Shown here: positions 8,844-62,437 of the stretch, piece after piece
Layout: the number at the start of each line of letters is the position of its first letter
Position numbering within the stretch: the stretch's first letter is position 1
NCBI GenBank assembly: GCA_036275695.1
Contig: DASUDI010000021.1
Location: 5,311-69,310 of the forward strand
DNA length: 64,000 bases
Source: Minisyncoccota bacterium
GTDB taxonomy: Bacteria; Patescibacteriota; Minisyncoccia; Phycocordibacterales; UBA918
Direction: 5' to 3'
The notes under the pieces: model-generated
The model's database searches: none
Seen by the model: the letters and a program-made list of their open reading frames with translations, nothing else
Told to the model about the DNA's origin: nothing
Program-made: the position numbers and the translations under genes

Positions 8844-10199
8844 TTATTTTGTAGGAATATTCGTGCCGATAAATGAGCCAATGGTGAGCACATCTTCTGC
8901 GAAGAGTGTTTGAATCCTTGTGAGAATTTCCTTTGCGGTAATGTGTCTGAGTATATCTTCTGTTTCGTAAAAATGTTCCCACGCATCCGCACTCATATAT
9001 TCAACTAATTCTTGCGCGATACCAAGACTGCTCGAGCGAGTGATGTATTCAGCGGTAATACTGCGCGCGATAACTTTTTTGAGGTGTGGCTGTATATCAG
9101 CAATGGTGAGAGTATCCAGAATTTTTCGTATTTTCGCGTAAATTTTTTTGTGATTAGTTTTCTTAGTGAGATGCACGGTAAGCATGCCAACATTCGTATC
9201 ATATGTTGGTTCGAGCATGGTAGAGACTGCTGAGGCAAGTCCTGTATCGACAAGTTTCTTGTGTAAAATACTATCCTCTTCTCCCGCAAGAATGGTCAGC
9301 GCAGTCATAGTTTCAAACCAAGATATGTGGGGAAAGCCGTCGTGTCGAAACGCAAGAGAAAGTATATTCTTTGTAGAATTTCGTTTAATGCTCACGGTAC
9401 GCACACCTTCTTGTTTTGGCTCGTGAATTGAAAGTCTTGATATTGTTTTTGTTGAGGAAGTAAGATGGGCAAAGTGCTCAATGACCACGTGCTTCATAGT
9501 CGATTCAGAAACATCTCCAACAATGATGAGGGTGGCGTTATTGGGGACATAGTATGTATTGTAGAATTGCGTTAACTTTTCACAGGTATACGATTCTATA
9601 TCTTCACGATAACCAATAGTTTCATGTCCATACGGGTGCGTGTGGAGTGCGGTACCAACTATACCCACTGAAAGAGCAAAATCTTCATCACCCGCGTACA
9701 TATCATATTCGCTGAGTACATTTGCTCGCTCTGGAAGAAATTCAGCGTCTGTGAGCACCATGTCTCGCATGCGCTCTGCTTCAATACGAAGCGCTCGACT
9801 AAAATGGTGTTTTGGATATGAAAAATAGTAACAGGTACGATCCTTCCATGTATTTGCGTTAAGTGTGATTCCTGTTTCTCGCTCAAATTGCATTGCGCTC
9901 GAATCTATCCCCGCGTCAATGTCGTGTTTTGTGGGTTTAAAGAGCATATGTTCGAGCATGTGTGCGATTCCGGTTTCACCACGATTTTCATCACGTGAGC
10001 CGACTTTATACATAATATTTGAGGTAATGATACCTGTTTTTGGCATATGCAGAAAAAGTACTTGCAAGCCATTGGTGCTCAATGTGTATAACGAGAGTGA
10101 GCCAACACTTTTTTGTAATGACAATACTGGTTTTTTAGTACGTTTCGGATTGTTCTTTGATGTCATGAATGAAGTTTTTATATTCTGCAAATACAGCAT
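8844..10199 (-). CDS. M16 family zinc metallopeptidase (pitrilysin/insulinase-like, active subunit)
   Basis: 451 aa with the inverted zincin motif GIAHMLEHMLFKPT (HxxEH) and the downstream E of the M16 family (…RETGITLNANT…). Confidence 0.8.
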   Translation of the reverse strand: MLYLQNIKTSFMTSKNNPKRTKKPVLSLQKSVGSLSLYTLSTNGLQVLFLHMPKTGIITSNIMYKVGSRDENRGETGIAHMLEHMLFKPTKHDIDAGIDSSAMQFERETGITLNANTWKDRTCYYFSYPKHHFSRALRIEAERMRDMVLTDAEFLPERANVLSEYDMYAGDEDFALSVGIVGTALHTHPYGHETIGYREDIESYTCEKLTQFYNTYYVPNNATLIIVGDVSESTMKHVVIEHFAHLTSSTKTISRLSIHEPKQEGVRTVSIKRNSTKNILSLAFRHDGFPHISWFETMTALTILAGEEDSILHKKLVDTGLASAVSTMLEPTYDTNVGMLTVHLTKKTNHKKIYAKIRKILDTLTIADIQPHLKKVIARSITAEYITRSSSLGIAQELVEYMSADAWEHFYETEDILRHITAKEILTRIQTLFAEDVLTIGSFIGTNIPTK

Positions 10200-10731
10200 T
10201 AAATTCTGAAAGTATGGGATTTCTCAATCTTCGATTGAGTGCGTTACTTAATTCTTGGTAATAATGAATGCGCTCATCGTGTTGGGTCCCGTACTCTGAT
10301 ATAAACCCAGTGTAGTCATTGATGTACTCTTCAATAATTGAGCGCATAGTATGAATCTTCCCTGCCGCAAGAACCATGAGTGCTTCGTCGGGAGCGATTT
10401 TTAATTGTTTAAAAAATTCCTTGCGCTGCTCATTGCGTCCACGAGTATCATCAGAGGTAAGTGGTGGTTCGGTTATGCTCTCAACGATATGCGTAACAGT
10501 TGGTCCAAAATCATCAGTCATTTCCTCACGTGAGTAATCAGTGTTATGCAATGTTTCGTGCAACAAGGCAGAAACAATTGTGTGCTCATCCTCCGTATAG
10601 TCAGCAATAATCATTGCAGTTGCAAATAGATGCGTGATATATGGATAAGGGACTGAACCCTTGCGCACCTGCCCCGCGTGGAGTACTGATGCAGCCCGAA
10701 TGGCTTGTTCTACTGGGAAAGTGTACCGCAT
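10135..10731 (-). CDS. HD-domain metal-dependent phosphohydrolase
   Basis: H…HD motif (YITHLFATAMIIADYTEDEHTIVSALLHETLHNTDY). The start is taken at MRYTFPVEQ; the ORF-track start at 10815 would overlap the neighbouring gene. Confidence 0.6.
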   Translation of the reverse strand: MRYTFPVEQAIRAASVLHAGQVRKGSVPYPYITHLFATAMIIADYTEDEHTIVSALLHETLHNTDYSREEMTDDFGPTVTHIVESITEPPLTSDDTRGRNEQRKEFFKQLKIAPDEALMVLAAGKIHTMRSIIEEYINDYTGFISEYGTQHDERIHYYQELSNALNRRLRNPILSEFNAVFAEYKNFIHDIKEQSETY

Positions 10732-10732
10732 A

Positions 10733-11017
10733 CTATGTGAGTGTTTTGAAATTTGTCTTTCGCTCTCTTTCAAGGATTCGTTTTTTAACAACTGATCCGC
10801 CCCTATTATACCCACCTAGGGTACCATTTGCACGTATAACACGATGGCATGGGATATTTGGGTTAAAATTCGCGCTCATGATGCGTGCAACCGCACGCGC
10901 CGCGTGAGGATTGCCTGCCAAAATAGAGACCTCTTTATAACTCTTTGTGTGACCTGCGGGGATTGAGGCAACGATTTCGAGCACGTGTGATTTAAAATCA
11001 TTTTTTGCGTTGCGCAT
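10733..11017 (-). CDS. methylated-DNA--protein-cysteine methyltransferase DNA-binding domain protein (Ogt/MGMT family, small)
   Basis: …IPAGHTKSYKEVSILAGNPHAARAVARIMSANFNPNIPCHRVIRANGTLGGY… carries the PCHRV active-site signature of the MGMT C-terminal domain. Start chosen at MRNAKNDF. Confidence 0.65.
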   Translation of the reverse strand: MRNAKNDFKSHVLEIVASIPAGHTKSYKEVSILAGNPHAARAVARIMSANFNPNIPCHRVIRANGTLGGYNRGGSVVKKRILERERKTNFKTLT

Positions 11018-11783
11018 ATATTTTCTGTAACTTTTTACCAGCTGCTTCACGATAGGGACAGAACTCACAGGATTCACCCACTTTAGGAAATATATCACAT
11101 TCAAGGCATGATTTAATATCGCTCAGGGTTTGTTCAATCCATAGATAGTCACCTTCACAGGGGACAAGTGTAGTCTTGAAGTGGAGGGTGTCATCAAATG
11201 AATCATAGTCAGTCCGCGCGTTTGCGTATACAAAATACCCTGTTTTTTCGACATCAAATCCATTTTTCATGAGAAGCCATTGGTACACACCAATCTGCCT
11301 CCTATACTGCTCCTCCCATGATGAATCAGCAAGTGTCTCGATGGATCCCTCCTTTGATGTTGCTTTATAATCAACCACAATGAGTTTGCCCGTGTCATTG
11401 ACCCAAATATCATCAACAGCTCCTGATACTGTGAACCCTGTATTGTCGTGCTTGTGCTCAAGTCCCAAAAAATTATCTCTCCATACCGGTAATTCGGGAT
11501 GTGCAAATGGTCTCGCATGTACACCATATGCTTGCATGATGGGATGTTGTGTCTCGTTTTTACGATGCACATCAAACTCTTTTTTAAACAATTCATCAAC
11601 GGCAACATTTAGGGTAAATGCAGGTCCTCGCGGTCGAGCGGTACCGAGTTTGTTGTCAAGGTAAAAACATCTCGGACATTCAATGTACAAATCTATTTTT
11701 GATCGAGAAAGGCGCCACTTCGGCCCCCCATAATTCCAGTCACTATTTCTGTTTGGATTATATTTTTTAGTAAAAGTTGCCAT
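10998..11783 (-). CDS. Cas4-like/DUF83 PD-(D/E)xK nuclease with a predicted 4Fe-4S cluster (solo, no cas neighbourhood)
   Basis: 261 aa. There is an N-terminal Cys (IECPRCFY) and a RecB-type motif (…LIVVDYKATSK…, D-x-K in DYK). A C-terminal Cys triad is present (CLECD…CEFCPY). This is the Cas4/RecB-nuclease Fe-S arrangement. Confidence 0.55.
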   Translation of the reverse strand: MATFTKKYNPNRNSDWNYGGPKWRLSRSKIDLYIECPRCFYLDNKLGTARPRGPAFTLNVAVDELFKKEFDVHRKNETQHPIMQAYGVHARPFAHPELPVWRDNFLGLEHKHDNTGFTVSGAVDDIWVNDTGKLIVVDYKATSKEGSIETLADSSWEEQYRRQIGVYQWLLMKNGFDVEKTGYFVYANARTDYDSFDDTLHFKTTLVPCEGDYLWIEQTLSDIKSCLECDIFPKVGESCEFCPYREAAGKKLQKIYAQRKK

Positions 11784-11864: not shown

Positions 11865-12392
11865 TTACGTTGCGGAGAAGGTAGTTGCAATTCCTTCAAT
11901 TACCACATCATCGCTGAGGCTGAAAGTCATATCGCCACCATTGGTGAAGAATACAACCTGGTAGCGTGAACCTGCGGTAGTTCCACGAATAAGTTCAATT
12001 GTTGTGGGTGTAAGCCCTGTTGTTGTGTCGAAACGAGCGGCTCCGAGGATATTACCTGCGGTGTCGTCATTAAACTCACGAACAACTACCCAACCCTTTT
12101 CTGTTGGAAGTGAAAGTGATTTAAGCGTAATTACACTACCTGCTGGTTGGTCATCGACAATTACTGAGCCCTCACCGACTTTAACGTTGGTATCACTTTT
12201 TACTGTGTCAGATTTCGCTTCTGGTTCCTGTGTACTCTTCACCTCTTCCGCTGACTGATCATCGCTATTTTCAGGCGCAGTCACATTTTCAGGTGATGAT
12301 GAAAAGACCCATACAAGTAATCCTCCAATGAGAAGACCTGATACAAACGCAACAACTGTCTTTTGACTCTCCTGCTTCTCTACCTCTGTCAT
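11865..12392 (-). CDS. hypothetical membrane-anchored secreted protein
   Basis: 175 aa. N-terminal TM/signal anchor (VVAFVSGLLIGGLLVWVFSS), then an acidic linker and a T/G-rich domain. Confidence 0.5.
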   Translation of the reverse strand: MTEVEKQESQKTVVAFVSGLLIGGLLVWVFSSSPENVTAPENSDDQSAEEVKSTQEPEAKSDTVKSDTNVKVGEGSVIVDDQPAGSVITLKSLSLPTEKGWVVVREFNDDTAGNILGAARFDTTTGLTPTTIELIRGTTAGSRYQVVFFTNGGDMTFSLSDDVVIEGIATTFSAT

Positions 12393-12509: not shown

Positions 12510-13337
12510 TTATTTTGAGCCACAAAGTGCTGATGCTTCACGGAGTACAGCATCAAACTTGGCATTTGACAAATGGAGTGTATGGAGCAGATGTGGTTTC
12601 CGCACAATGTCAGCACAGAGGATGGTCCCCTGTTTCAAAAGTGTTTGTTTTTGGTTATTAGAAATGTGCGTCAAGACCGTAATGGGATATAATCCGCTAC
12701 GTTCAATTTTATCTCTGAGCGAGTTATGTTTAGGGTAATTCCAACTGAGTAGATTGATGCCGGCACACTCAGCATATTTTGTCGCCGCGAGCGTAAACTT
12801 TGTATTGGTGACAACATACAATGAGACAATGCCACACACATCATCCTTACACACTTGCAAGGATTGTAGATCAAGAAAACGAGCGTATGAATACATTGCC
12901 ACTTGAAGATCTGATTTTATGCCCGGTTGCGCGTGATATTTTGCTTCAGCAACGAAACTGTGCTCAGGAGAGTATCCTGCGACGTCAATTTCATGCACCG
13001 CACACTTCCCTTTTATCATGAGTCGCTGTTTCGTCTTGTATCCCTCGGATTGAAATACACGACCAAGATAGTCTTCAAAAGCAAATCCACTTGGTCCCAG
13101 CGCAAAAATTGCACGTCTCATTGAGTATTTGGCCGCAACGGGATCCTCGCTATTTCGTAATAATTCAAATGCCCTTCGATAAATGTGCTGCGTGGTCATA
13201 CCCTCCGTTAATTCAGATTCAATGGTATGAACAATATTTTGAACCTCGCTCTGACTCGCACCCGCACCACGAAGTGAAGAGATTAGTTTTTGTGGTCTAA
13301 AATCTTCAGTATTTCCATCTGCTTTGATTATTTTCAT
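12510..13337 (-). CDS. ATP-cone domain fused to an Mrr-like restriction-endonuclease (PD-(D/E)xK) domain
   Basis: The N-terminus MKIIKADGNTEDFRPQKLISSLRGAGAS… is NrdR-type ATP-cone-like. The downstream part carries …FEDYLGRVFQSEGYKTKQ…VHEIDVAGYSPEHSFVAEAKYH… (E…D…EAK, Mrr_cat-like). Start placed at the internal Met (13337). Confidence 0.55.
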   Translation of the reverse strand: MKIIKADGNTEDFRPQKLISSLRGAGASQSEVQNIVHTIESELTEGMTTQHIYRRAFELLRNSEDPVAAKYSMRRAIFALGPSGFAFEDYLGRVFQSEGYKTKQRLMIKGKCAVHEIDVAGYSPEHSFVAEAKYHAQPGIKSDLQVAMYSYARFLDLQSLQVCKDDVCGIVSLYVVTNTKFTLAATKYAECAGINLLSWNYPKHNSLRDKIERSGLYPITVLTHISNNQKQTLLKQGTILCADIVRKPHLLHTLHLSNAKFDAVLREASALCGSK

Positions 13338-13369
13338 GTTCACACAGTATAGCACGCACAAAGTGGAGG

Positions 13370-14455
13370 TCACATATTCTCAGTTTCAATACTGTCAATT
13401 ATGCCACCACCAATACATTGCGTTTCTTTGTACCAGACACAGGACTGTCCTAGTGAAGGAAGTTCGACATGGTTGTTGGGTAATGTAACCCGAGCGGTGG
13501 TCTCTCCTGTGCGTGTGAGCGTGATAGGAAAAGGCTTTTGTCGGTATCGAAATTGAGCGGTGTATGAATTGGTATCAAGCTCACTAATAAAGTTACATTC
13601 AGTAAGTAGTACTACGGCGCCGTCGCGGAGATGTACCGGCGCAGTTCCTGCGGTAATGGTATTACGTTCTATGTCACGTGAAATGACATAGTGTGCACTT
13701 TCTGAGGCGCTCTGCGCGTGAATCCTAAAACCTTGTCGCTGCCCGAGTGTGTAAAAAAGCGCCCCATCGTGCGTACCTATAACATTTCCCTTTTCATCAA
13801 CCACATCACCAGGTTGCACGTCAATGTAGTGTGAGAGAAAGTCTTTCATATCTATTTCACCCAGAAAGCAAACACCCTGACTGTCTCCCTTTTTGTGAGT
13901 TGCAAGACCTACGTGTTCAGCTTCACTGCGTACATGTTGCTTTACCGTATCACCGACCGGAAAGATCGTACGCTCAAGTTGTCCTTGCGTGAGTGTCCAA
14001 AGAAAATACGACTGATCTTTGTCTGTGTCTACACCACGGTGTAACTGAAAGGCACCCCCGTGTTCGATTACCCGCGCGTAGTGCCCTGTTGCAATTTTTG
14101 TAGCACCATATGAAGACGCAAAATCAAGAAACGTACCGAATTTCACATACTTGTTACACATAACGTCAGGATTAGGTGTCCTACCTTTGCGGTACTCATC
14201 AATCATATACATCGCAACAGCATCGCGATAATTTTCCACGGCGTCACAGGTATAAAATGGAATACCCAGGTGGGCGGCTACACGCATAGCGTCAAGTCGT
14301 TCTGCTTGCCAGGTACAACGAATAAAATCAGGTTGCCACGTCTTTATGAACACACCAATGACATTGTATCCAGCATTGAGAAGTCTTTGTGCTGCCACAC
14401 TTGAATCAACTCCCCCTGAAAGTCCGACACACACCGTATCTTTTGCATTGCTCAT
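13370..14455 (-). CDS. mnmA: tRNA-specific 2-thiouridylase
   Basis: 361 aa. PP-loop VCVGLSGGVDSSVAA, then …QSYFLW…, and the C-terminal MnmA domains. Confidence 0.9.
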   Translation of the reverse strand: MSNAKDTVCVGLSGGVDSSVAAQRLLNAGYNVIGVFIKTWQPDFIRCTWQAERLDAMRVAAHLGIPFYTCDAVENYRDAVAMYMIDEYRKGRTPNPDVMCNKYVKFGTFLDFASSYGATKIATGHYARVIEHGGAFQLHRGVDTDKDQSYFLWTLTQGQLERTIFPVGDTVKQHVRSEAEHVGLATHKKGDSQGVCFLGEIDMKDFLSHYIDVQPGDVVDEKGNVIGTHDGALFYTLGQRQGFRIHAQSASESAHYVISRDIERNTITAGTAPVHLRDGAVVLLTECNFISELDTNSYTAQFRYRQKPFPITLTRTGETTARVTLPNNHVELPSLGQSCVWYKETQCIGGGIIDSIETENM

Positions 14456-15473: not shown

Positions 15474-16793
15474 TTAGCCAACGGGAAGATTTGAGGGTGC
15501 TTCTGATCGTTTTGAAGGAATGCGATTAAGTGTTGGTGTGGTGACTACCTTTCCAGGAAAATGAAAGATGGTTGCAAGCTCTTCGGTAGTAAGTACTTTT
15601 TTGGTGTCTGCTCCACTATAATTTTCGTACGCTCGTCGTTTGTGTCGATCGAGTTCTTCCTCCTTCCATTTTAAGGAATTTCGCTCACCTCTATCTTGCC
15701 ACCACTTCCAATCAACGCCTGAGCGCCACCGCACCCCAATGGCATTACGGTTGAGGTCATCGTATGTGCGCCACATGGTATTCATCGCGCCAATTCTCTC
15801 TCCAGGTTGAAAGTTTTCTTTTTGAGCGAGATAAATACCGCGAATCGCTGTATTGAAAGCTGGCTTCGCAAGACTCCGCTCTATTGCTTTTACGGTGTCA
15901 CGTTCTGTGTCGGTGAGTAACTGCATTGCATTTCCCTTTGTCTCCGCGCCAGCACGCTTGACTGCGTTTTCGATAATTTTTTTAATTTCATCACGCGCGG
16001 GCCCGGTCCAATCAGATGTTTTATGGAGCGATCCTTCTTTAAACGTCATGGCACGATTTGCGTCAATGAGTATCTGAATCCACATGTACTCGCCCTGACC
16101 TATTGATCCAAGGGTCTCAAGGACTGTGGCAATTGGATCAACCTTCTCTTCCTCCTTCGGCATATCCTTGAGTCCGTAATCAATGTATGTCTTGATAGGA
16201 TACGCGTCCGCTTTTTTAAGACCATAATGAAATACCATCATAGAGTATTTTTTAGGATTCCACGGTATCTCTGCGGTATAATCAATATCGAGCTCGTATA
16301 CCTCTATACCAGGATATTGTGCATATAGTTGTGTCTCGATAAGATTTTTAAATTTCTTTTTTGGTGTATTAATATAAAATGAAACTTCACCATGACGCGA
16401 GACTATTTCCAGACCATACGTTGGAGGTTTTTTTCCATCAATATACGTTTCTATATGATTATCAGGACCTGCAGTCTGATGCATTTGAACGAGCACAAGT
16501 TCCATCGCTTCTGGTGATTTAAGAATTTCTTGTGGTAGTCGAATTTCAAGAGTGGTGCGACCTTGCGCCCAGTCAAATTCTTTTCGTACGTAATCAAGCC
16601 ATGCCTCAAAAAAAAGAAAAAAAAGTGTAAAAGGGAGCCATACAGGGGCGGTGGCGACAATAAATCCGAGTGACTCAGTGGGGACATCAATAAAATTTAC
16701 AAATACAAATACCATTAGGAGAATACCAAAAAGCGCAAGTATGTATTTACTGTCTATGCCAAACCCCTCAAAAAATTTTAGAAATGCGTCCAT
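15474..16793 (-). CDS. hypothetical membrane protein (two N-terminal TM helices plus a large soluble domain)
   Basis: 439 aa. No recognisable family. The C-terminal part is Trp/Arg-rich (…RWRSGVDWKWWQDRGERNSLKWKEEELDRHKRR…). Confidence 0.5.
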   Translation of the reverse strand: MDAFLKFFEGFGIDSKYILALFGILLMVFVFVNFIDVPTESLGFIVATAPVWLPFTLFFLFFEAWLDYVRKEFDWAQGRTTLEIRLPQEILKSPEAMELVLVQMHQTAGPDNHIETYIDGKKPPTYGLEIVSRHGEVSFYINTPKKKFKNLIETQLYAQYPGIEVYELDIDYTAEIPWNPKKYSMMVFHYGLKKADAYPIKTYIDYGLKDMPKEEEKVDPIATVLETLGSIGQGEYMWIQILIDANRAMTFKEGSLHKTSDWTGPARDEIKKIIENAVKRAGAETKGNAMQLLTDTERDTVKAIERSLAKPAFNTAIRGIYLAQKENFQPGERIGAMNTMWRTYDDLNRNAIGVRWRSGVDWKWWQDRGERNSLKWKEEELDRHKRRAYENYSGADTKKVLTTEELATIFHFPGKVVTTPTLNRIPSKRSEAPSNLPVG

Positions 16794-16863: not shown

Positions 16864-17943
16864 CTACGCAACAAGGATGTAGTTACCATCTGGTAACCTC
16901 TTAAAGAGAGTTGTGTCTTGAAGGTTTACAATAATAGTGTTGTCCTTAACGTAACGTTCGCGGCGCACTTTATCAATAATCTCCTCACGTGTCAGTGGCC
17001 CATGAGTTTGGAGCACATCGCGAAGTACGTCTTTTACAACTCCCGCAGAGTACCCCCATTCTGTGAGCGCGTATAAACCTCTTCCCACAAGCACAAATCG
17101 CTCATCTTTGATGAGTTCATTATGAGTAGTAGCAACGTGTGCCTTTTTTTCAAAAAGTGATTTGATTGAGTCCGCAACTTCCTTAAAGTGCATGGGTGAA
17201 CCATGACGTTTTACCGCGAGATACGCATAGTCTCTGATACCTTTCGCACGTACATTAGGACTCGATGCGTGACCCCACTCACCAAGCGGATTTTTATCAA
17301 TTTGTTTAGAAATGCTGAGCCATCGCTTAAATATTGCTTCATCGCGATAGCACTCCTCAACCTCTCCAAGCTCGTGCTTCAATCGCGCAATAATCTCTTC
17401 TTCTGTTATGAGGTCATCTTCACTAAGTGAGTCAAAAATATTTTTGAGCGCTTTCTCTACGGTGCCAGAGAGCTTTTGTTCCAAGCACCATCGATAGTTA
17501 AACGAGCTGTCTTCCTTGATGCGACGAAATGGCTCACCAACCATAAGAATGAAAAAAAGATGATTTCGTAGTGAAGAATCTTTCGTAAGTTCGTCAAAAA
17601 GCGCTTTCTCATTTACTACGCCTCCAAGCTGTTGAATTGCGTCCTTGAGTTCCTCAAACGTATGAGTAAACTCGCGGTATACCGATGACTTCTGAATAGA
17701 CTGAATACCGTAATTTTCGATCTGACGCACTCGCTCACGGGTGATGCCATATATCTTTCCAATTGCTTCAAGTGTTTGTGATTCAGAGTTGGCGCCAAGT
17801 CCGTACCTCTTTTCGAGAACATCTCGCGCTCTGTCGGGAAGAACAGAAAGAAGTTTCTTCGTCACCTGTTTTGGTTTGAATGTGATCATAAATTCTTTCA
17901 TCAAAATATCCATCTTTTTATCACAGTATTTTTCTGTCGTCAA
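16864..17943 (-). CDS. sigma-70 region 4 (HTH) domain-containing protein, not a full sigma factor
   Basis: 359 aa. Near the N-terminus …LEAIGKIYGITRERVRQIENYGIQSI… is the sigma-70 r4 HTH signature. The rest of the protein is unassigned. Confidence 0.55.
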   Translation of the reverse strand: MTTEKYCDKKMDILMKEFMITFKPKQVTKKLLSVLPDRARDVLEKRYGLGANSESQTLEAIGKIYGITRERVRQIENYGIQSIQKSSVYREFTHTFEELKDAIQQLGGVVNEKALFDELTKDSSLRNHLFFILMVGEPFRRIKEDSSFNYRWCLEQKLSGTVEKALKNIFDSLSEDDLITEEEIIARLKHELGEVEECYRDEAIFKRWLSISKQIDKNPLGEWGHASSPNVRAKGIRDYAYLAVKRHGSPMHFKEVADSIKSLFEKKAHVATTHNELIKDERFVLVGRGLYALTEWGYSAGVVKDVLRDVLQTHGPLTREEIIDKVRRERYVKDNTIIVNLQDTTLFKRLPDGNYILVA

Positions 17944-28434: not shown

Positions 28435-30100
<1,666 letters not shown>

Positions 30101-31073: not shown

Positions 31074-32645
31074 TTAGGTGGTGGTTGCGTAATAATGTTG
31101 ATGTGCATTCTTGAAATCAGCAATTGATGTTGTAATGTCAGAAATAAGCGCGTCAGTGAGTTCGCGACCTTTTTCGAGCGTATCAAGAATATGGGTACGA
31201 TCACGCTCAATAAATTCGATAAACATCTCTTCTACTGCACGCACCTTTTCAGGTTGTACGCCATTGAATATGCCGTTATTTGCCGCAAAAATAGCAACAA
31301 CTTGTTTAAAGAATGGCACTGGCTGATTTTGTGGCTGTTTTAATAATTCAACGTACGTGCGTCCTGAATCAATGCGCTTTTTGGTTTCCTCATCAAGATC
31401 AGACGCAAACTGCATGAATGCTTCAAGTTCACGAAACTGCGCTAATTCAAGTCGAATTTTACCTGAAACTTTTTTCATTGCTTTTGTCTGTGCTGATGAT
31501 CCTACGCGTGACACTGAGATACCGACATTGAGCGCGGGTCGGATACCCTTATTAAAGAGGTCAGTTTCTAGGAATATTTGTCCATCAGTAATTGAAATGA
31601 CGTTTGTTGGAATATACGCAGACACATCCCCTTCCTGTGTTTCAATAATAGGAAGTGCGGTAATTGAACCTCCTCCACGTTCTTTTGAAAGTTTTGCTGA
31701 ACGTTCGAGGAGTCGAGAATGAAGATAAAAAATATCACCAGGGTATGCTTCACGACCTGGCGGACGGCGTAAAAGAAGTGACATCTGTCGGTACGCGTTT
31801 GCGTGTTTTGATAAGTCATCAAGTACCACAACAACGTCCTTACCCTGTTGCATGAAGTATTCAGCAATTGCCATACCTGCAAAAGGCGCAAGGAATAAAA
31901 GAGGGGATGCTTCTGATGCTGAGGTGGCAACGATAGTTGTGTACTCCATTGCCCCCGCATCCTCAAGCTTCGCCATAAGTGTTGCGGTTTTAGAACGTTT
32001 TTGTCCTATGGCAACATAAATACATAATGGGCGTTTTTCCTTAGGTTCATATTTTTGATTGATAATCGTATCAATCGCGATAGTCGTCTTGCCTGTACCT
32101 CGGTCACCAATAATAAGCTCTCGCTGTCCCCGTCCGATGGGGATCATTGCATCAATTGCTTTGATACCGGTATGAATGGGCTCATTTACTGATGATCGAT
32201 CCATGACACCATACGCAACCCGTTCGATAGGCATTTCTGCCTGGGTGGCGATTGCACCCTTACCATCAATTGGTTCTCCAAGTGGATTTATGACACGACC
32301 TACTGTTCCCTCTCCGACGGGGATTGAAAGTAGTTTTTTTGTACGATATACGTGCATACCCTCTTTTACACGCCTCGTTTCTCCAAGCACCACAACTTTG
32401 ACGACATCTTCTTCAAGATTAAGAATGAGTCCTACGAGTGCTTGTTTGCTTGAGATAACTTCTTCAAGCGACTTTCCCATTCCATCATCAAATACCACCA
32501 TTTCCATCATCTGTGCCGTCCGCAAACCTGAAATCTCAGCAATACCATCACCCACCGAAATAACCTCTCCAACATCTTCTGGAATAGCGCTAGTTTCCAT
32601 GCGTGCAATTTCGTTCTTTATCGTCTCAATGATTGTTGTGCTCAT
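31074..32645 (-). CDS. atpA: F0F1 ATP synthase subunit alpha
   Basis: The start is taken at [13 protein letters not shown]… (32645). The 41-codon ORF-track extension would overlap atpH. P-loop [18 protein letters not shown]. Confidence 0.95.
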
Positions 32646-32664
32646 AGGTATGTGGTTGCTAAAA

Positions 32665-33042
32665 TTATTGAATAACAGTTTTGTAGAGGTGGATAAGTTT
32701 CTTTTTGAATGATGTATCAATGACGCGATTTTGATACTGTACACGCATACCGCCAATAAGTGACGCATCTACGTCTATATCATAATCCTTTGCACCAAGT
32801 GTTGTTAGTAACTTTGCTATTGAATTTGCTTCAATGTTCTGCGCATCCGCGCGTGCAAGTGTAACATGTGCCTTATTGCTTGATTCTGAATTTTTAATTT
32901 CACACATAAGACCACGTAGTACAGGTATCAGAAGTTTTTCGTGTCCACGAGTGCGCAGAGTGTATGTGAGACCCTCAATAACTGAATCAATAGGTTGCGT
33001 ATTGAGTGCTTCACGTGCTGCTTTGATATATCTATCTTTCAT
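32665..33042 (-). CDS. atpH: F0F1 ATP synthase subunit delta (short OSCP)
   Basis: 125 aa. The C-terminus (…[23 protein letters not shown]…) is delta-like. Its position between atpF and atpA is canonical. Confidence 0.7.
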
Positions 33043-37635: not shown

Positions 37636-40272
37636 TTACAAAATGTTTTTAAGATATGTTCCTGTATGAGATTTTTGATTATGGGCAACTTCTTCGGGAG
37701 TTCCTTTTGCCACCAATGAGCCGCCACCACTCCCGCCCTCAGGACCAATATCAATGATGTAATCTGCGCACTTTATTAAATCAAGATTATGCTCAATCAC
37801 TATTACCGTGTTTCCCTTTATAACAAGTTCCTGCAATATCTCAATAAGTTTCCGCACATCTTCGTAATGAAGACCGATAGTTGGTTCATCCAGGAGATAT
37901 ATTGTTTTTTGTGTATGTGGTCGATACAATTCGGAAGCGATTTTTACACGCTGCGCCTCGCCCCCAGAGAGAGTTGTGGCGCTTTGTCCAAGCTCTAAAT
38001 ACCCAAGTCCTACATGAAGGAGCGATTGTAAGCGATCATGAATCGCGGGTACATCATTGAAAAATGCACCCGCTTCTTCAATGGTCATGTGAAGCACTTC
38101 ATCAATATTTTTGCCTTTATAATGTACTTCAAGTGTTTCTTTGGTAAACCGTTTGCCGTCACACACATCGCAGGTCACAAATACGGTGGGGAGAAAATGC
38201 ATTTCAACAGCAACTTCACCGTTTCCTTGACATGCTTCACAGCGTCCGCCTTTTACGTTAAATGAAAATCTATTTGGCTTCCAACCTCGCGCGCGTGCCT
38301 CATTTGAATGTGCGAAAAGGTCACGTATATGGGTAAACGCCCCCGTATATGTTGCGGGGTTTGAGCGTGGCGTTCTCCCAATTGGTGATTGATCGATAAG
38401 AATTTCCCTGCCAAGATATTCTGTACCGTTAAATGATGTTGCGTTGTAGGTATGTGGAGTCCTAAATTTTTTATCAAGGCGCGAACGGAGGTTACGATGT
38501 ACAATTTCATACATGAAAGTAGATTTGCCACTCCCTGAAACTCCGGTAATGGCCACGAGCCTTCCGAGAGGAATATCCACATTCATATTTTTAATATTGA
38601 ATGCCTTTCCACCTCTTACTTTGAGTGAGCCTTTTTCGCTATCACGTCTTTTCTTAGGTACCTCAATTTTTTTAGTACCACGTAGGTAATCAAGGGTACA
38701 TGAGCCAGAAGTATTTGAAGGTGCGTCGAGAAGAGGTTTTAGATATCCTGAAACAACCACTTCCCCACCATGTATACCTGCTCCTGGTCCAATATCTACA
38801 ATGTAATCAGATGCGAATATCGTATCTTCATCATGTTCCACAATAATGATACTGTTACCGAGGTCACGAAGTTCGGTGAGTGTTTTAATAAGTCGAGCAT
38901 TATCACGCTGATGTAATCCTATGGTTGGTTCATCAAGGACATACATTGCACCCACAAGCCCTGAACCAAGTTGTGAGGCGAGGCGTATACGCTGCGCCTC
39001 GCCTCCCGAGAGAGTATTTGCTCGCCGATTGAGTGTGAGATACTCAATGCCAACATTTATCATAAAATCAAGTCTCTCAATTATTTCGCGAAGAGCTGGC
39101 CACGCAATTTCCTGATCTTTTTTTGAAAGTTTGAGTGCTGAAACAAATTCTACAGCCTCCGCTATGGTCATATTAGTAAAATCAACAATATTTTTTCCAA
39201 GGTGTTTTGCGTCACCGCCAATATATACGCGAAGCGCTTCTGGTCGAAGACGAGCACCATTGCACGCAGAACAGGTGTCAGTATTAAAAATGCCTGTCGT
39301 GCCAAGTCCGTTACATTCAGAACAAGCACCGTACGGTGAATTAAATGAAAAGAGGCGTGGCTCAACTTCTGGAAACGATGAACCATCAGTTGGGCAAATA
39401 AATTTTGCTGAGAGCATACGTTCATCGCCATCCGGTGTACGCACTTTTACGAGTCCACCCGATTCACGAAGTGCTAATTCTACCGCTTCTGAAAGTCGTT
39501 CTCTTGCATTTTTGGGTGAGTGTTCAAATTCACTCACATATATTTCATCAACAAGCACGTCAATATCATGACGCTTTGTCTTAGTAAGTATAATTTTTTC
39601 ACGAAGTTGCTTTACTTCACCATCGATTCGAATAGTTTCGTATCCCTTAGAAAGCAAATCATACAATAGTTGGTAGTACTCACCTTTTCTACCAACGACA
39701 ACGGGTGAAAAGATTGAGACTCGTGCTGAACTCACTTCAACACCAAGTACATTGGTAACATCGGACTTTAATCGTTTGACTTCCCTATCTTCAATTGATT
39801 TTTGAATAATTCCGAGAATTTCGTCTTGTGATAGTTTCTGAATCGGAATATCAACGTCGAGACAGTATGGCTGACCTATGCGCGCGTATAAAATACGAAG
39901 ATAATCATATATCTCAGTAATTGTCGCAACGGTCGATCGAGGGTTGCGTGACGCTGATTTCTGATCAATTGATATTGCGGGCGAAAGTCCGCGTATCTCA
40001 TCAACATCAGGTTTCTGCATTTGCCGTAGAAACTGACGAGCATACGATGAAAGTGATTCGACATACCGTCGCTGACCTTCGGCAAAGATGGTGTCAAACG
40101 CAAGTGATGATTTGCCACTTCCAGAAAGTCCGGTAAATACCACCATCTTATTTCTTGGAATTTCTAAATCAATATTCTTTAGATTGTGGGTACGGGCTCC
40201 GCGAATCGTAATTTTTTCATCATGTGGACCATCACATGCAGCCTTATTTTTTGAGTCTTTTTTGTGCACCAT
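37636..40272 (-). CDS. uvrA: excinuclease ABC subunit A
   Basis: 878 aa. Two ABC ATPase modules ([15 protein letters not shown]… and [15 protein letters not shown]…), zinc-finger Cys clusters, LSGGEAQR signatures. Confidence 0.9.
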
Positions 40273-40312: not shown

Positions 40313-41641
40313 CTATTTAGGTAGTGTGACGACAATCTGAGTTCCAACTCCTTTGATGGACTCTACACCAATTGAACCATTCATTAGATCGATAAGTTGT
40401 TTGGTGATCCACATACCAAGTCCCGTACCCACAATTGCATCCACCTCTGTCCTACGAACTCTGAAAAAAGGTGCAAAGAGGTTCTTTTGATTTTCAGCAC
40501 TAATTCCCATTCCAGTATCCTTAACACGTAATTCAATTGATGGCCCGATATCAGAGACTTCAAGGGTAATAATACCCTTGGGTGTGTATTTAATGGCATT
40601 ACTTACAAGATTTGTAAGTGCTTGATGTAGTCGTTTACCATCAATATTAATCATGACATCACCAAAAAGTCCTTCCTTTTTAAGAGTGATGTTTTTTGCC
40701 TCAGCTTGAAATCTCATAATATCAAGTACAGCAGTAATAATAGGTTGAATATTAGTTCGCGTCGGTTGCATTTCAAGTTTGCCGGATTGTATGCGTGCAA
40801 CATCAAGCAAATCACCCACAAGGATCACCAATTGTTCTGACGAACTCTCGATGCGCTCAGCAAACTTTTTCACCTCATCAGTGGCGTCATCTTTTTGTCG
40901 AATCATACTCGCGTAACCACGCATTGAGGTAAGTGGTGCACGCAGCTCATGAGCTATCATATTAGTAAACATGTCTTTTGCGTCACTTGCTTTTTTTGTT
41001 TCCTTATAGAGATATGAGTAATCAATTAAACGAATGTGTCGCATAATTAGTACGAGGATCACAATGAGCATTGCGATAAGCCAATATACAGCCTCTATAA
41101 TTCTATTTGCAAAAAGGGTATCTATGTGACTGAGTGAGGTTTCCGTAAAAATATAGTACACATCACCCACATCAGTCCGTACGAGTCGATAACTCCTCCA
41201 ATAACGTACTCCATTTTCGGCATACGGTGTGATGATACTTTCATCTGGATGTGTGTTCGTAATTCTATAATTTGTGCTTAAAATATCACTTGTATCAGCA
41301 TCCGCATTGTGTACAATGACTTCAACATCAGGAATTCCTTCCTTTGCAACAATGAATCTTCGAATATCTGGATTTAATTTAGTAAGTGTGTCTATCTCTT
41401 GCTTAATAATTTCAGGATCAAAATTAACTGCCTCAACATATGAAGCGAATACATCATGCATGATGCCAATCCTATCCTTCTCTAAGCGCTCTTGATTTTG
41501 TCTGCCAGCGTCAAGGAATTTTTGTCCAGAAATTATGAATGCAACAGGTATCACAACGATGAGAACCATCGTCATTAACACCTGGGGGTGCTTATGGATA
41601 TACGCGTAACTACTTTTTAACGGGGTGATAAAATGCGACAT
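40313..41641 (-). CDS. two-component sensor histidine kinase (no cognate response regulator adjacent)
   Basis: 442 aa. Two TM helices flank a sensor domain of about 150 aa. HisKA H-box IAHELRAPLTSMRGY. HATPase_c N/G boxes (…LVSNAIKYTPKG…, …DTGMGIS…, …GTGLGMWI…). Confidence 0.8.
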   Translation of the reverse strand: MSHFITPLKSSYAYIHKHPQVLMTMVLIVVIPVAFIISGQKFLDAGRQNQERLEKDRIGIMHDVFASYVEAVNFDPEIIKQEIDTLTKLNPDIRRFIVAKEGIPDVEVIVHNADADTSDILSTNYRITNTHPDESIITPYAENGVRYWRSYRLVRTDVGDVYYIFTETSLSHIDTLFANRIIEAVYWLIAMLIVILVLIMRHIRLIDYSYLYKETKKASDAKDMFTNMIAHELRAPLTSMRGYASMIRQKDDATDEVKKFAERIESSSEQLVILVGDLLDVARIQSGKLEMQPTRTNIQPIITAVLDIMRFQAEAKNITLKKEGLFGDVMINIDGKRLHQALTNLVSNAIKYTPKGIITLEVSDIGPSIELRVKDTGMGISAENQKNLFAPFFRVRRTEVDAIVGTGLGMWITKQLIDLMNGSIGVESIKGVGTQIVVTLPK

Positions 41642-52748: not shown

Positions 52749-54086
52749 CTACTGAGCACTATTTACGCCTTCAACATACTCCATCCCTTCATCAACGGTG
52801 ATTTGATAGCGGTTATGTTCTTCAGTTGCTTTTGCAATATACATAACGGTGATAATAAAAATTATAATGATGATAAGTAGGGATATGAAAAACTTTTTGT
52901 ACACGCGTACAAAACCTATGATTGTCTCCATAACATCCATTGTCTCGCGAGTCGCGTGCATACGCGCGCGCAAATCAAGTACACCATATCGCAGCGGCGC
53001 GGTGATGTGCGTTTGTGGTACGGAGCGGGTATTGGGTTGTCCTCTCTCCCATAACATACTTCGTGGTGTGGTGTGTAAGTGAACATGACCCTCCTTTGGA
53101 TCTACACCAGCGAGTATGAGCATTCTACGTACATACGCACGCACCATCCACACAAGACTCGAAATAATAAGTGTCAAAATAGACACAACAATAAGCGTCG
53201 CTTTCAGCGGGATAACCCAAAAATATACTGTTGCGGATTCACTCTTTACACCATCAGTCCCGTAGCCAAGGGTAACAATTGCCTTATAGCGACCAATATC
53301 GCTAAGGTTAAAGTCACTACTCCATGTATAATGATATTCACGTATACTTTTCGGCAGTACGTTTCCAAATTGGGTCTGATAATTAACGGGGATCACTCCT
53401 CGTTCGGTACCCCACATATTAGTGATACGTATTTCACCTCGCGGGAGAAGGTGCACGTTGCCTTTATTCTCAAATCGTAGTGAAAATTCTGCCTGTGGTT
53501 TTTCAAGTATGGAATCAGATAGTCGAAATTCACGAATGGAACCTTGCTCGATTACGTCACCTTCGACCCTCAAAAAAAATAATGAGGTGACTGCTTGTGA
53601 TGTCCTGACGAGAGGACCATTTGCAATATTATTTGGTGGTTCGGTACTTATGAGTACTGCTGCATAATGTCCTCCCGGTGACGCATTCTTTGGAATGTCC
53701 ACAATGAACGATATCTCCTGAGTCTGTTCTGGCTGTATCTGGTGTGGCCCAGGGGGAATCTCAACCCACTCCGCAAGTGTTGCGCCATCGGTATCTGGCG
53801 AATCGATAATTTGTGCCTCATCTTTTTTGACGGAAAAAAATTCACCTTGCCCATTTTCGCCCGTTGGTGAAAAATTTACCACTTCTGCATATACCGTCAT
53901 GGGGAATGGGTTGCCGTTTACAACTTTAATAGTACTTTGCCACACATCTCCGGGAAGCGCGGTTATTTGAAAAAGTGGTGGGGTGACACTCAAAATTTGC
54001 GAAGATTGAGCGTTTACCGAAGATGAGCACATGAGCAGAAAAAAAGTGCCAATGATCTGTGTGAATCTAAAAAGTACATTTCTCAT
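52749..54086 (-). CDS. hypothetical cell-surface protein (signal peptide, beta-rich ectodomain, C-terminal TM anchor; DUF916/DUF3324-like organisation)
   Basis: 445 aa. Signal MRNVLFRFTQIIGTFFLLMCSSSVNA. Then …LSVTPPLFQITALPGDVWQSTIKVVNG… C-terminal TM (LKATLIVVSILTLIISSLVWMV) plus a tail. It is a paralogue of the next gene. Confidence 0.5.
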   Translation of the reverse strand: MRNVLFRFTQIIGTFFLLMCSSSVNAQSSQILSVTPPLFQITALPGDVWQSTIKVVNGNPFPMTVYAEVVNFSPTGENGQGEFFSVKKDEAQIIDSPDTDGATLAEWVEIPPGPHQIQPEQTQEISFIVDIPKNASPGGHYAAVLISTEPPNNIANGPLVRTSQAVTSLFFLRVEGDVIEQGSIREFRLSDSILEKPQAEFSLRFENKGNVHLLPRGEIRITNMWGTERGVIPVNYQTQFGNVLPKSIREYHYTWSSDFNLSDIGRYKAIVTLGYGTDGVKSESATVYFWVIPLKATLIVVSILTLIISSLVWMVRAYVRRMLILAGVDPKEGHVHLHTTPRSMLWERGQPNTRSVPQTHITAPLRYGVLDLRARMHATRETMDVMETIIGFVRVYKKFFISLLIIIIIFIITVMYIAKATEEHNRYQITVDEGMEYVEGVNSAQ

Positions 54087-60560: not shown

Positions 60561-60622
60561 ACATAAATACCTCCGAATATATCGGATACCTCTATTATGA
60601 AGCAAAACACCAGAAATGCGAC

Positions 60623-62344: not shown

Positions 62345-62437
62345 AGCAAAACATGCGCGCATATTTAACCCAATGCACCCATATTCATCTATAATAGCAA
62401 CTATTTGCAATGATGAGTGACAGTGTTATCAACAGTG

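Follow-up and report, generated by a model that had tools for sequence, protein, structure and literature searches.

Position and start of the gene

The gene described here lies on the minus strand of the window (the whole 64-kb stretch of DNA that was analyzed) in a block that reads LeuRS, sigma-like gene, DUF8128, YceG, MnmA and then the gene itself. An open reading frame is indeed present at 12510..13373 on that strand, as the preliminary description had it; its mechanical start codon is a GTG at 13373 that overlaps the MnmA stop codon. Among the matches listed, however, almost all close homologs are 273–276 aa long with an N-terminus of the form M-K/I-I/V-x-K-A-D-G, so the true start is probably the equivalent Met codon, the ATG at 13337. 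The coding region would then be 12510..13337 (minus strand, stop codon included) and its product a 275-aa protein; an identical 275-aa protein is present in the database (P0001). A promoter-like site (GTGACC-16-TATACT with an upstream TG; 13346..13373, minus strand) ends 9 nt before this ATG, but it is a consensus match only, and because such sites are no more numerous in the region than expected from shuffled sequence it is weak evidence and we make no claim for it.

In the window's own clade the neighbors of the gene are MnmA, a small membrane protein, a Cas4-like nuclease and an Ogt-type methyltransferase. The nuclease gene, which the preliminary description called a Cas4-like Fe-S nuclease two genes downstream, is present at 10998..11783 (minus strand) and matches PDDEXK_1 with 47 bits; the PADLOC Cas4 models match it at E ∼1e-11, and the Cas4 model TIGR00372 reaches 32.6 bits, below its cut-off of 65. 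A tandem-repeat scan of the 64-kb window found no repeat array, and no cas genes were seen among the window ORFs scanned. Since PDDEXK_1 is matched, TIGR00372 is not reached and the repeat scan is empty, this gene is a Cas4/AddB-like stand-alone nuclease outside any CRISPR locus. UvrA and UvrB are encoded elsewhere in the window.

Domain architecture of the protein

The N-terminal domain (residues 1–78; 13104..13337, minus strand) has the fold that defines an ATP-cone, a β-hairpin cap over a four-helix bundle, and matches PF03477 with 33.7 bits (gathering score 25.8) over profile positions 1–83 of 88; nearly all homologs among the matches listed carry PF03477 as well. Its cone residues are K5-A6-D7-G8, E11, F13, K17, T49, Y53, Y71 and R74. 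In 146 family representatives (clustered at 50% identity) K5 is kept without exception (146/146), and G8, E11, F13, K17, T49, Y71 and K/R74 are also conserved. The nucleotide contacts in the Aquifex R1 cone are Lys7, Arg8, Glu13, Lys19 and Lys88 (PMC8772380); by comparison K5, E11, K17 and R74 are kept here, but the equivalent of Arg8 is Ala6, so that the canonical K-R-D-G, with its phosphate-binding Arg, reads K-A-D-G. Position 6 is Ala in 81 of the 146 representatives and Ser in 22, whereas Archaeoglobus-type members have Arg there. Genuine cones of NrdR and NrdD reach 74–93 bits, against 33.7 for this one. With the Arg missing from K-A-D-G and so low a score, the ligand of the cone may be something other than ATP or dATP; even so, gating of the protein by an adenine nucleotide is predicted as the somewhat more probable state of affairs.

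The cone is joined to the second domain by the invariant linker motif L-G-P-x-G-F-x-F-E (residues 80–88; 13074..13100, minus strand). It runs from the last cone helix to catalytic helix α1; G81, G84, F87 and its terminal residue E88 are each found in 146/146. The second domain is an Mrr-like PD-(D/E)xK nuclease core (residues 85–214; 12696..13085, minus strand) with five catalytic residues, E88, E116, D118, E131 and K133, encoded on the minus strand by 13074–13076, 12990–12992, 12984–12986, 12945–12947 and 12939–12941, respectively. All five are 100% invariant in the 146 representatives and likewise in a 69-sequence alignment of CPR and archaeal members, and they align with the AF1548 residues assigned D38/E51/K53. 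The E…D…EAK motifs pointed out earlier thus correspond to E88, D118 and E131-A132-K133. The Mrr_cat profile (PF04471) itself stays below its gathering score in this protein (17 bits vs. 21, with a short stretch matched), but it is above that score in many homologs, and the archaeal ones carry it in precomputed Pfam lists. An extra loop, C-K-D-D-V-C at residues 163–168, is restricted to the window's clade. The folds nearest to the nuclease domain include the ligand-gated PD-(D/E)xK nucleases Can2, Card1, Cdn1 and NucC. Both the domain matches and the complete set of active-site residues agree with the fusion of an ATP-cone to an Mrr-type PD-(D/E)xK endonuclease that had been proposed at first reading, and it is quite likely that the protein is an active nuclease.

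A third domain was overlooked in the preliminary description. The C-terminal portion (residues ∼217–275; 12513..12689, minus strand) is helical and helix-hairpin-helix-like (HhH), and residues ∼217–270 match AF1548-like_C (PF22357) with 27.5 bits against 23.9. In fold comparison this domain resembles the Rad51 N-terminal domain; it presumably binds nucleic acid.

The AF1548 family

The protein is almost certainly a three-domain member (cone, Mrr-like nuclease and AF1548-like_C) of the family of Archaeoglobus fulgidus AF1548, which it matches significantly in both sequence and structure over the nuclease and C-terminal domains. The family representatives align end to end and are 263–295 aa long, with the same domain order as the 275-aa protein, and the archaeal set carries the combination PF03477+PF04471+PF22357. 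Its members number in the thousands and come from CPR bacteria, from archaea (DPANN and others) and from Chloroflexota, Bacteroidota and Chlamydiota. Some members are longer (P0384, P0388, P0254, P0260 and others), but a Rosetta-stone fusion check found no informative extra domain in them; the additional length consists of low-complexity N-terminal over-calls or insertions in the α2-β4 loop.

The fusion of ATP-cone and nuclease is already annotated in databases, and AF1548 has been predicted, by bioinformatics only, to be a restriction endonuclease (PMC1821046, PMC1874628); its structure, 1Y88, was filed in the Mrr_cat group by Steczkiewicz et al. 2012 (PMC3424549). Our literature search found no functional study of the ATP-cone nuclease/AF1548 family, only bioinformatic mentions of the truncated 1Y88. 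These proteins are thus a known but uncharacterized kind, to which the present gene adds a member. The 1Y88 crystal structure derives from an N-truncated gene call that starts at an internal Val, and for this reason the crystallized fragment has no cone; it also lacks the LGPxGFxFE linker and the equivalent of E88. Conclusions drawn from it are therefore incomplete, since the sensor and one invariant active-site residue are missing.

Gene order and conservation

MnmA occupies the −1 position in 31 of 32 close loci, and the LeuRS-sigma-DUF8128-YceG-MnmA block is retained next to the gene even where the protein itself is only 37–40% identical. In the same eight genomes, median identity is 64% for the ATP-cone nuclease, 67.5% for LeuRS, 55% for MnmA and 45% for YceG. 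Judged from these sequence comparisons the gene evolves as slowly as LeuRS, which is core-gene behavior, and in its CPR (Kaiserbacteria/Paceibacteria-type) host it is best read as a vertically inherited housekeeping gene and not a mobile defense gene.

In other lineages the gene keeps different company. In five of the six Bacteroidota/Chlamydiota-branch loci that were read, a β-CASP nuclease (MBL+Beta-Casp+RMMBL) gene follows; the two genes overlap in three of these five, and in a fourth no more than 11 nt separate them. In the plasmids of Criblamydia and Pontibacter, the genes that come next in the operon encode a thymidine/AMP phosphorylase of archaeal type (TIGR02645, above cut-off) and a ribose-phosphate diphosphokinase. 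In a Bathyarchaeia genome the gene overlaps a bona fide AMP phosphorylase gene (TIGR03327, 617 bits vs. 535), which in turn adjoins that of ribose-1,5-bisphosphate isomerase. At one Korarchaeota locus a Bmp-family protein is encoded two genes away, and by analogy with the NupDABC transporter (PMC12628685) we take it to be a nucleoside-binding protein. An Iainarchaeum locus, in which the gene is convergent with nrdG-nrdD, is a further link to nucleotide metabolism. The partners that truly overlap the gene are catabolic (β-CASP RNase-like nuclease, AMP phosphorylase) or transporters. Many distant loci have thioredoxin, metal or oxidative-stress neighbors instead.

Predicted function

To our knowledge, the understanding of ATP-cones is so far confined to their part as an on/off switch in ribonucleotide reductases and in the repressor NrdR. 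Tentatively, and as a reading that could well be right, we regard the present protein as a housekeeping nuclease that is gated by adenine nucleotides and serves the turnover or salvage of nucleic acid. The cone would read the adenine-nucleotide state, either ATP vs. dATP or energy charge, and would relay it to the nuclease along the invariant LGPxGFxFE linker, which connects directly to the catalytic helix; alternatively or in addition, the signal could pass through nucleotide-dependent oligomerization, as in ribonucleotide reductases and NrdR. Cleavage would thereby be switched on or off, while the HhH domain would grip nucleic acid without sequence specificity. From the operon partners in other lineages, the physiological role would be a controlled breakdown of nucleic acid that supplies nucleotide salvage or catabolism. 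The domains, the intact active site, the deep conservation and the gene contexts are observed; that the cone binds a nucleotide, which way it regulates, whether DNA or RNA is cut and what this does for the cell are what we infer. Of the options in the preliminary description, the third, a regulator of DNA turnover, comes closest to the reading that the evidence favors.

The salvage or turnover role taken by itself is possible but somewhat doubtful. CPR and DPANN organisms are believed to subsist in part by breaking down nucleosides and nucleic acids via the AMP-phosphorylase pathway (PMC7414124, PMC12628685). The link to salvage comes from few loci: roughly two independent cases of adjacency to AMP phosphorylase, and the β-CASP pairing in a single branch. 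Among ∼155 CPR and archaeal loci, AMP phosphorylase stands beside the gene only at the Bathyarchaeia locus and β-CASP at none. A phmmer search with β-CASP, AMP-phosphorylase, PRPP-synthase and R15P-isomerase proteins over 86+80 loci and the window matched only at L006, L087 and L088, and none of these salvage-type genes is present in the 64-kb window.

The neighbors in the window's own clade fit DNA repair at least as well as salvage. It is conceivable, if rather unlikely, that the protein is a structure- or damage-specific DNA-repair or replication-fork nuclease whose cone couples activity to dNTP availability, and that in CPR it works with the neighboring Cas4/AddB-like nuclease and Ogt-type alkyltransferase. 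A nuclease followed by HhH is the arrangement of XPF/Mus81-type enzymes, the fold is close to that of NucS/EndoMS, and the likeness of the C-terminal domain to that of Rad51 points the same way. A PDDEXK_1 nuclease gene lies at +1 to +3 (mostly +2) in 29 of 32 loci of the clade, a DNA_binding_1 gene (MGMT C-terminal domain, PCHR motif) is also found 3′ of the ATP-cone nuclease gene there, and PDDEXK_1 recurs at −2, in a different arrangement, at two distant loci; a 3-methyladenine glycosylase gene lies nearby at the Korarchaeota locus, and the UvrA and UvrB of the window can be counted on the same side. However, outside a single CPR clade the Cas4-like gene is not a conserved neighbor, and none of the 49 distant genome loci shows the linkage to PDDEXK_1 and Ogt, which may therefore reflect nothing more than inherited gene order. 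Across phyla, no partner from recombination or repair turns up repeatedly, and the genes that truly overlap this one are catabolic or transporter genes.

A thiol-redox or metal-stress-controlled nuclease, in which C112 and C191 (codons 13002–13004 and 12765–12767, minus strand) form a redox switch or joint ligands and which responds to oxidative or copper stress, possibly on top of nucleotide sensing, is improbable. Both cysteines are present in 139 of the 146 representatives, both are absent in 7, and none has a single one; the seven without them do not group together as closest relatives, implying that the pair was lost more than once. Thioredoxin reductase is encoded ≤5 genes away at 10 of 49 distant genome loci, in at least four different arrangements, in company that includes thioredoxin, DsbA-like proteins, DoxX and DJ-1; Ni-superoxide dismutase is a neighbor at five loci, and among 75 metagenome loci the gene is next to a CsoR-type repressor at 11, CopA at 6 and Trx/TrxB at 6. 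Against this, the canonical restriction-endonuclease-like topology would be expected to keep C112 and C191 well separated in a single subunit. The stress genes show no translational coupling with the nuclease gene and may cluster for unrelated reasons in small CPR/DPANN genomes, and the window's own clade has no redox gene next to it.

It is very improbable that the protein is an NrdR-like transcription factor, whose cone would sense dATP/ATP, whose nuclease-fold and HhH domains would do no more than bind DNA, and which would repress ribonucleotide reductase or other genes in lineages without NrdR (archaea, CPR). NrdR is reported to be absent from most archaea, where the present family is common; a cone plus a DNA-binding part parallels the NrdR layout, one Iainarchaeum locus has the gene convergent with nrdG-nrdD, and the thioredoxin system, an RNR reductant, is a frequent neighbor. 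But five active-site residues that are 100% invariant would be unexpected in a purely DNA-binding derivative, adjacency to RNR is found at 1 of ∼170 loci, and one Woesearchaeota contig (L074) encodes, 6 kb apart, both a family member and a true NrdR (Zn_ribbon_NrdR plus ATP-cone). A search with the cone HMM of every ORF of 86 loci and the window found other cone proteins only at L071 (NrdD) and L074 (NrdR); the gene is thus neither systematically beside RNR genes nor exclusive of NrdR.

Finally, a defense or abortive-infection effector, an Mrr-type nuclease unleashed when a phage perturbs (d)ATP pools, is extremely improbable, and the gene is very probably not a defense gene at all: the nuclease fold is common to the Mrr, MspJI, AspBHI, Can2, Card1, NucC, Cap4 and Shedu effectors, a sensor plus a nuclease is a layout typical of them, and two homologs (the only two plasmid homologs found) are plasmid-borne, but these two lie in a metabolic operon and not a defense island, no methyltransferase, Mrr_N, CARF or other defense partner is present, and the gene has a position in a housekeeping block that is fixed across deep divergence and conservation at the level of an aminoacyl-tRNA synthetase. 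PADLOC gave no family for the protein or the +1 gene (only its Cas4 models match, to the +2 gene), the NCBIfam defense models do not match the protein, and homologs were found neither in 50,697 phage records nor among 2.9 million viral contigs scanned by pattern; taken together, the searches of PADLOC, phages, viral contigs and BFVD yielded only fold matches at the level of domains. The defense role suggested in the preliminary description was set aside on these grounds.

CPR bacteria and DPANN archaea have no de novo nucleotide synthesis and are believed to use nucleic acids as food, and this family is one of the more conserved in their tiny genomes. If the cone gates cleavage, the family would supply a missing point at which nucleotide or energy status controls the degradation of nucleic acid, as well as a simple natural small-molecule-switched nuclease. 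More speculatively, and rather improbably, AF1548-type proteins could add a third functional class to the two known for ATP-cones, ribonucleotide reductases and NrdR, namely endonucleases gated by energy or dNTP status, possibly with thiol-redox input via the Cys pair, that open a route from nuclease to β-CASP exonuclease to NMP to AMP phosphorylase and the pentose-bisphosphate pathway; CPR, DPANN and some Bacteroidota/Chlamydiota would use it to live on DNA/RNA or, with ATP running low, to recycle RNA of their own. Some hosts of the family are in culture (Archaeoglobus, Ferroglobus, Geoglobus, Pontibacter, Psychroserpens and Chitinophaga), which puts the question within direct reach of experiment.

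Comparison with known systems

NucS/EndoMS, the mismatch-specific PD-(D/E)xK endonuclease of archaea and actinobacteria, has a different N-terminal domain, no ATP-cone and no HhH tail, and its sequence similarity to the present protein is not detectable. Mrr, a type IV methyl-dependent restriction endonuclease, belongs to the same catalytic-domain superfamily, but it has an Mrr_N winged-helix DNA-recognition domain, to which there is no match here, and a sporadic, defense-island distribution, whereas the ATP-cone nuclease gene is a syntenic core gene. In NrdR an N-terminal Zn ribbon (PF22811) precedes a C-terminal cone; here there is no Zn_ribbon_NrdR match, the cone is N-terminal, its partner domain is an intact nuclease, and there is no evidence of operator binding. 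AF1548 itself differs in that the Archaeoglobus cone has K-R-D-G where this protein has K-A-D-G and an extra C-K-D-D-V-C loop. Can2, Card1 and Cdn1 are among the best fold matches to the nuclease domain, although only that domain superposes; their sensor is a CARF domain unrelated to the ATP-cone, and they lie in type III CRISPR defense loci and are activated by cyclic oligoadenylate. Like the present protein, however, they combine an N-terminal sensor of an adenine-nucleotide-derived ligand with a C-terminal restriction-endonuclease-like nuclease, and they offer a working model for how its cleavage might be gated by a ligand.

The X protein: start, domains, and active site

The minus-strand ORF at 12510..13373 opens with a mechanically called GTG codon that overlaps the stop of mnmA, the gene upstream. 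Almost all of the close homologs listed are 273–276 aa long and start at a Met equivalent to the ATG at 13337, and database entry P0001 shows 100% identity across 275 aa; the gene, X hereafter, is therefore taken as 12510..13337 (275 aa), and residues are numbered from this Met. Pfam finds an ATP-cone at residues 1–75 (33.7 bits, curated cut-off 25.8) and an AF1548-like_C domain at about residues 217–270 (27.5 bits, cut-off 23.9), and the middle and C-terminal parts match 1Y88, the crystal structure of Archaeoglobus fulgidus AF1548 (E=1.8e-28). A confident AlphaFold2 model built from a 69-sequence alignment (pLDDT 91.3, pTM 0.86) has as its top structural matches the PD-(D/E)xK nucleases NucS (12.4), AspBHI, FokI, MspJI, and Can2 (10.2), and its C-terminal helices also match helix-hairpin-helix (HhH) modules (Rad51 N-terminal domain, NusA AR2). 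Thus, the fusion of an ATP-cone to an Mrr-type nuclease given in the preliminary description is correct, but the start lies 36 nt further in and a third, HhH-like domain is present; the Mrr assignment is supported by structure and homologs, although X's own score with the Pfam Mrr_cat profile is under threshold (17 bits vs 21).

Conservation was scored in two alignments, one of 146 representatives (one per 50%-identity cluster) and one of 69 sequences from CPR (Patescibacteria-type bacteria) and archaea. The active-site positions E88, E116, D118, E131, and K133 are invariant in both, and G81, G84, F87, G110, R153, D156, and P218 are invariant in the family as well. D118/E131/K133 align with AF1548 D38/E51/K53, the catalytic residues assigned by two bioinformatic papers (PMC1821046, PMC1874628), and 1y88 belongs to the Mrr_cat group of Steczkiewicz et al. 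(PMC3424549). The catalytic triad is thus not substituted, and X has the appearance of a working nuclease. Within the cone, K5 never varies, and G8, F13, K17, T49, Y71, and K/R74 almost never do. Nucleotide contacts in the Aquifex R1 cone are Lys7, Arg8, Glu13, Lys19, and Lys88 (PMC8772380); X has the Lys, Glu, and Lys equivalents, and in place of Arg8 it has Ala6 (most members have Ala or Ser there), whereas Archaeoglobus-type members keep the Arg in a canonical K-R-D-G. Because these residues are conserved, the cone is presumably functional.

Two cysteines, Cys112 (13002..13004; in the β1-β2 turn, four residues N-terminal of E116) and Cys191 (12765..12767; at the end of helix α3), covary perfectly: 139 of the 146 representatives have both, seven have neither, and none has a single one. 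The nearest relative of each Cys-less sequence has both, so the pair was lost jointly several times. By canonical fold topology the two should lie apart within the monomer, and they could pair across subunits, form a ligand site together, or act as a redox switch; the last is worth testing because thioredoxin-system genes often adjoin X.

The AF1548 family

A search with the AF1548 fragment recovered the genuine Archaeoglobus product (database entry P0121), which is 265 aa long, 99% identical to the fragment, and carries an ATP-cone at its N-terminus; PF03477, PF04471, and PF22357 occur together in nearly all archaeal relatives. In alignment with P0121, the 1Y88 protein begins at an internal Val mistaken for the start. 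The crystallized AF1548 thus comes from a gene call cut short at the N-terminus: the natural protein is about 265 aa, and its cone, its invariant LGPxGFxFE linker, and its counterpart of E88 are all missing from the structure.

Among 1.84 billion cluster representatives, an exhaustive HMMER search gave 412 at E<=1e-30, almost all 263–295 aa long and aligned end to end; word-indexed searches gave 2,763 relatives for X and more than 6,551 for the Criblamydia member, and 348 GTDB species genomes match a single peptide pattern of the family. Hosts include many Patescibacteria/CPR classes and Anaerolineae; Archaeoglobi, Hadarchaeota, Bathyarchaeia, Korarchaeota, Thermofilaceae, Altiarchaeota, Aenigmatarchaeota, Iainarchaeota, Woesearchaeota, and Nanoarchaeota; and a large Bacteroidota/Chlamydiota branch with cultured Pontibacter, Psychroserpens, Chitinophaga, and Criblamydia. 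Databases call these proteins "ATP cone domain-containing protein," "restriction endonuclease," or "Holliday junction resolvase," and JGI uses [quoted passage not shown] so the cone-nuclease fusion is already annotated. A literature search aimed at the family found neither experiments on it nor a computational study devoted to it; X is a further member of a known, annotated family, and databases already contain the fusion.

Gene neighborhoods and possible roles of X

The genes adjacent to X differ by lineage, and most of this adjacency is probably inherited gene order. Three themes recur: nucleic-acid catabolism and salvage; thiol, metal, and oxidative stress; and abutting ion transporters. 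In the Bacteroidota/Chlamydiota branch a β-CASP metallo-β-lactamase nuclease (Lactamase_B+Beta-Casp+RMMBL; closest to the NCBIfam models Cas14 and aCPSF1, neither above cut-off) follows X in five of six loci read, overlapping it in three and lying <=11 nt away in a fourth; the Psychroserpens copy was located by tblastn. L172, L174, and L175 share this pair with the Criblamydia plasmid NZ_LK031773 (L087 8001-12608) and the Pontibacter plasmid NZ_CP021236 (L088 1972-6597), and on these two plasmids the operon, whose genes overlap or are closely spaced, continues with an archaeal-type thymidine/AMP phosphorylase (TIGR02645, above cut-off) and a ribose-phosphate diphosphokinase. The clusters embedding the module also carry P-type ATPases together with Usp, MgtC, PFK, 2-hydroxyacid dehydrogenase, DeoC, phosphoketolase, acetate kinase, and glycogen phosphorylase, which look like an energy-starvation gene set; the module itself has the look of a starvation or nucleic-acid-catabolism operon not described before. 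A Bathyarchaeia genome has X overlapping the end of a gene for a bona fide AMP phosphorylase (TIGR03327, 617 bits vs 535), which follows one for ribose-1,5-bisphosphate isomerase. Both enzymes are part of the archaeal pathway that degrades nucleosides and NMPs (pentose bisphosphate pathway). That pathway has also been assigned to CPR and DPANN (small-genome archaeal) organisms believed to feed on nucleic acids (PMC7414124, PMC12628685). In one Iainarchaeum locus, X and nrdG-nrdD are convergent, and one Korarchaeota locus has nearby a Bmp-family protein, taken to be nucleoside-binding on the model of the NupDABC transporter. The role that we favor, tentatively, is a regulated turnover of nucleic acids whose products enter nucleotide salvage or catabolism.

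Thioredoxin reductase lies within five genes of X in 10 of the 49 distant genome loci and is arranged in at least four different ways, with companions such as thioredoxin, DsbA-like proteins, DoxX, DJ-1, glutamate dehydrogenase, and GH15. In five CPR contigs (L056, at 10867-11594; L059, L066, L069, and L075) Ni-superoxide dismutase and an S26-type maturation peptidase are directly downstream; some of these contigs are labeled "Gammaproteobacteria" and are probably mislabeled bins. Next to X among the 75 metagenome loci are a CsoR-type repressor (11), CopA (6), and Trx/TrxB (6), and abutting ion transporters include CorA (Ferroglobus), MscS (an A. fulgidus-type contig), and MgtC (a second CPR lineage). 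A redox input could be layered on a turnover or repair role. A Woesearchaeota contig (L074 16702-17145, minus strand) encodes a canonical NrdR (Zn_ribbon_NrdR plus ATP-cone) 6 kb from its X homolog, although NrdR is usually described as absent in archaea.

Downstream of X, the window's own clade has a Cas4/AddB-like PDDEXK_1 nuclease and a short Ogt-type protein, a pair that hints at DNA repair; the window's genes described next are all on the minus strand. Directly downstream (11865..12392) is a 175-aa protein that has a hydrophobic N-terminal segment, matches no family of Pfam, NCBIfam, or PADLOC, and has a promoter-like TGaTATAAT upstream of its gene; this small membrane protein keeps its +1 position in 28 of the 32 close loci (X >=50% identical), and in a second CPR lineage MgtC, at +1 or +2, replaces it. 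Of the 32 loci, 29 have a PDDEXK_1 nuclease at +1 to +3, mostly +2. In the window this is a stand-alone Cas4/AddB-like nuclease (10998..11783), 69% identical across genomes and found at -2 of X in two distant loci. Its description as a Cas4-like Fe-S nuclease fits the PDDEXK_1 match (47 bits), PADLOC Cas4 models (~1e-11), and Cys motifs compatible with an Fe-S cluster (C-P-R-C near the N-terminus, C-L-E-C...C-E-F-C near the C-terminus), but it scores under the TIGR00372 cut-off, and no repeat array was found in the window. Overlapping its 3' end is an ORF (10733..11104) for a short Ogt/MGMT-type protein with only the C-terminal DNA_binding_1 domain (88.8 bits) and a PCHR acceptor-cysteine motif; its homologs are 90 aa long, so the true start is probably further in. 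An HD_4 protein with only the RelA/SpoT-type HD hydrolase domain (10135..10815, 52.7 bits) is kept in the same block of related genomes. With the Cas4/AddB-like and Ogt-type genes in its favor, a repair or fork-processing nuclease ranks second, as a rather doubtful possibility. An NrdR-like regulator that has no catalytic role is unlikely for a family with an invariant active site.

The window is ordinary CPR chromosomal DNA, with genes for LeuRS, AlaRS, BipA, F-type ATP synthase (α and β subunits, 31074..32768 and 28685..30061), and, on the minus strand, UvrA and UvrB (37636..40272 and 44478..46523), between which lie a histidine kinase (40313..41641) and a 927-aa protein in which only Big_13/TSP3 repeats were recognized (41641..44424). 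This repeat protein and three large minus-strand ORFs without a Pfam family at E<=1e-5 (55089..60605, 60623..62410, and 52749..54086; 1838, 595, and 445 aa) are probably CPR surface proteins. MnmA is at -1 of X in 31 of the 32 close loci. The block of LeuRS, a sigma-like Sigma70_r4/HARE-HTH protein (16864..17943, minus strand), DUF8128 (15474..16793, minus strand), YceG, and MnmA is kept across deeply diverged Parcubacteria, and persists with X in metagenome loci whose X is 37–40% identical to that of the window. The sigma-like protein is the best conserved of the block (median identity 75%). Among the eight genomes with the whole block, X (median 64%) resembles LeuRS (67.5%) and exceeds MnmA (55%) and YceG (45%). 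PADLOC and NCBIfam models do not match X, no homolog was found in 50,697 phage records or, by a pattern-based scan, in 2.9 million viral contigs, and a BFVD search gave only single-domain fold matches. Because of these negative searches, its fixed block position, and its LeuRS-like conservation, X is by its behavior a vertically inherited housekeeping gene, and the suggestion that it is a defense or abortive-infection effector is very improbable.

Proposed mechanism and comparison with known systems

For the mechanism of X, as for its role, we infer beyond domains, residues, conservation, and context: it would be an active, metal-dependent nuclease whose HhH tail binds nucleic acid irrespective of sequence and whose ATP-cone tunes activity to adenine-nucleotide status. 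The signal might pass through the invariant LGPxGFxFE segment, which leads from the last cone helix straight into the catalytic helix bearing E88. Alternatively, or in addition, nucleotide could drive oligomerization, as cones do in RNRs and NrdR; this route would suit X because the PD-(D/E)xK fold usually requires a dimer to cut duplexes.

The analysis adds to the existing annotations that the family's only structure is of a truncated product, that it has a strictly covarying cysteine pair, that it is a slow-evolving CPR/DPANN core gene and not a defense gene, and that other phyla place it in overlapping operons with a β-CASP nuclease and AMP-phosphorylase-type enzymes. A cone-controlled nuclease should interest specialists in ATP-cones and CPR metabolism, and cultured hosts make testing feasible. 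Can2, Card1, Cdn1, and NucC are ligand-gated PD-(D/E)xK nucleases, and this nuclease fold is thus readily controlled by a ligand.
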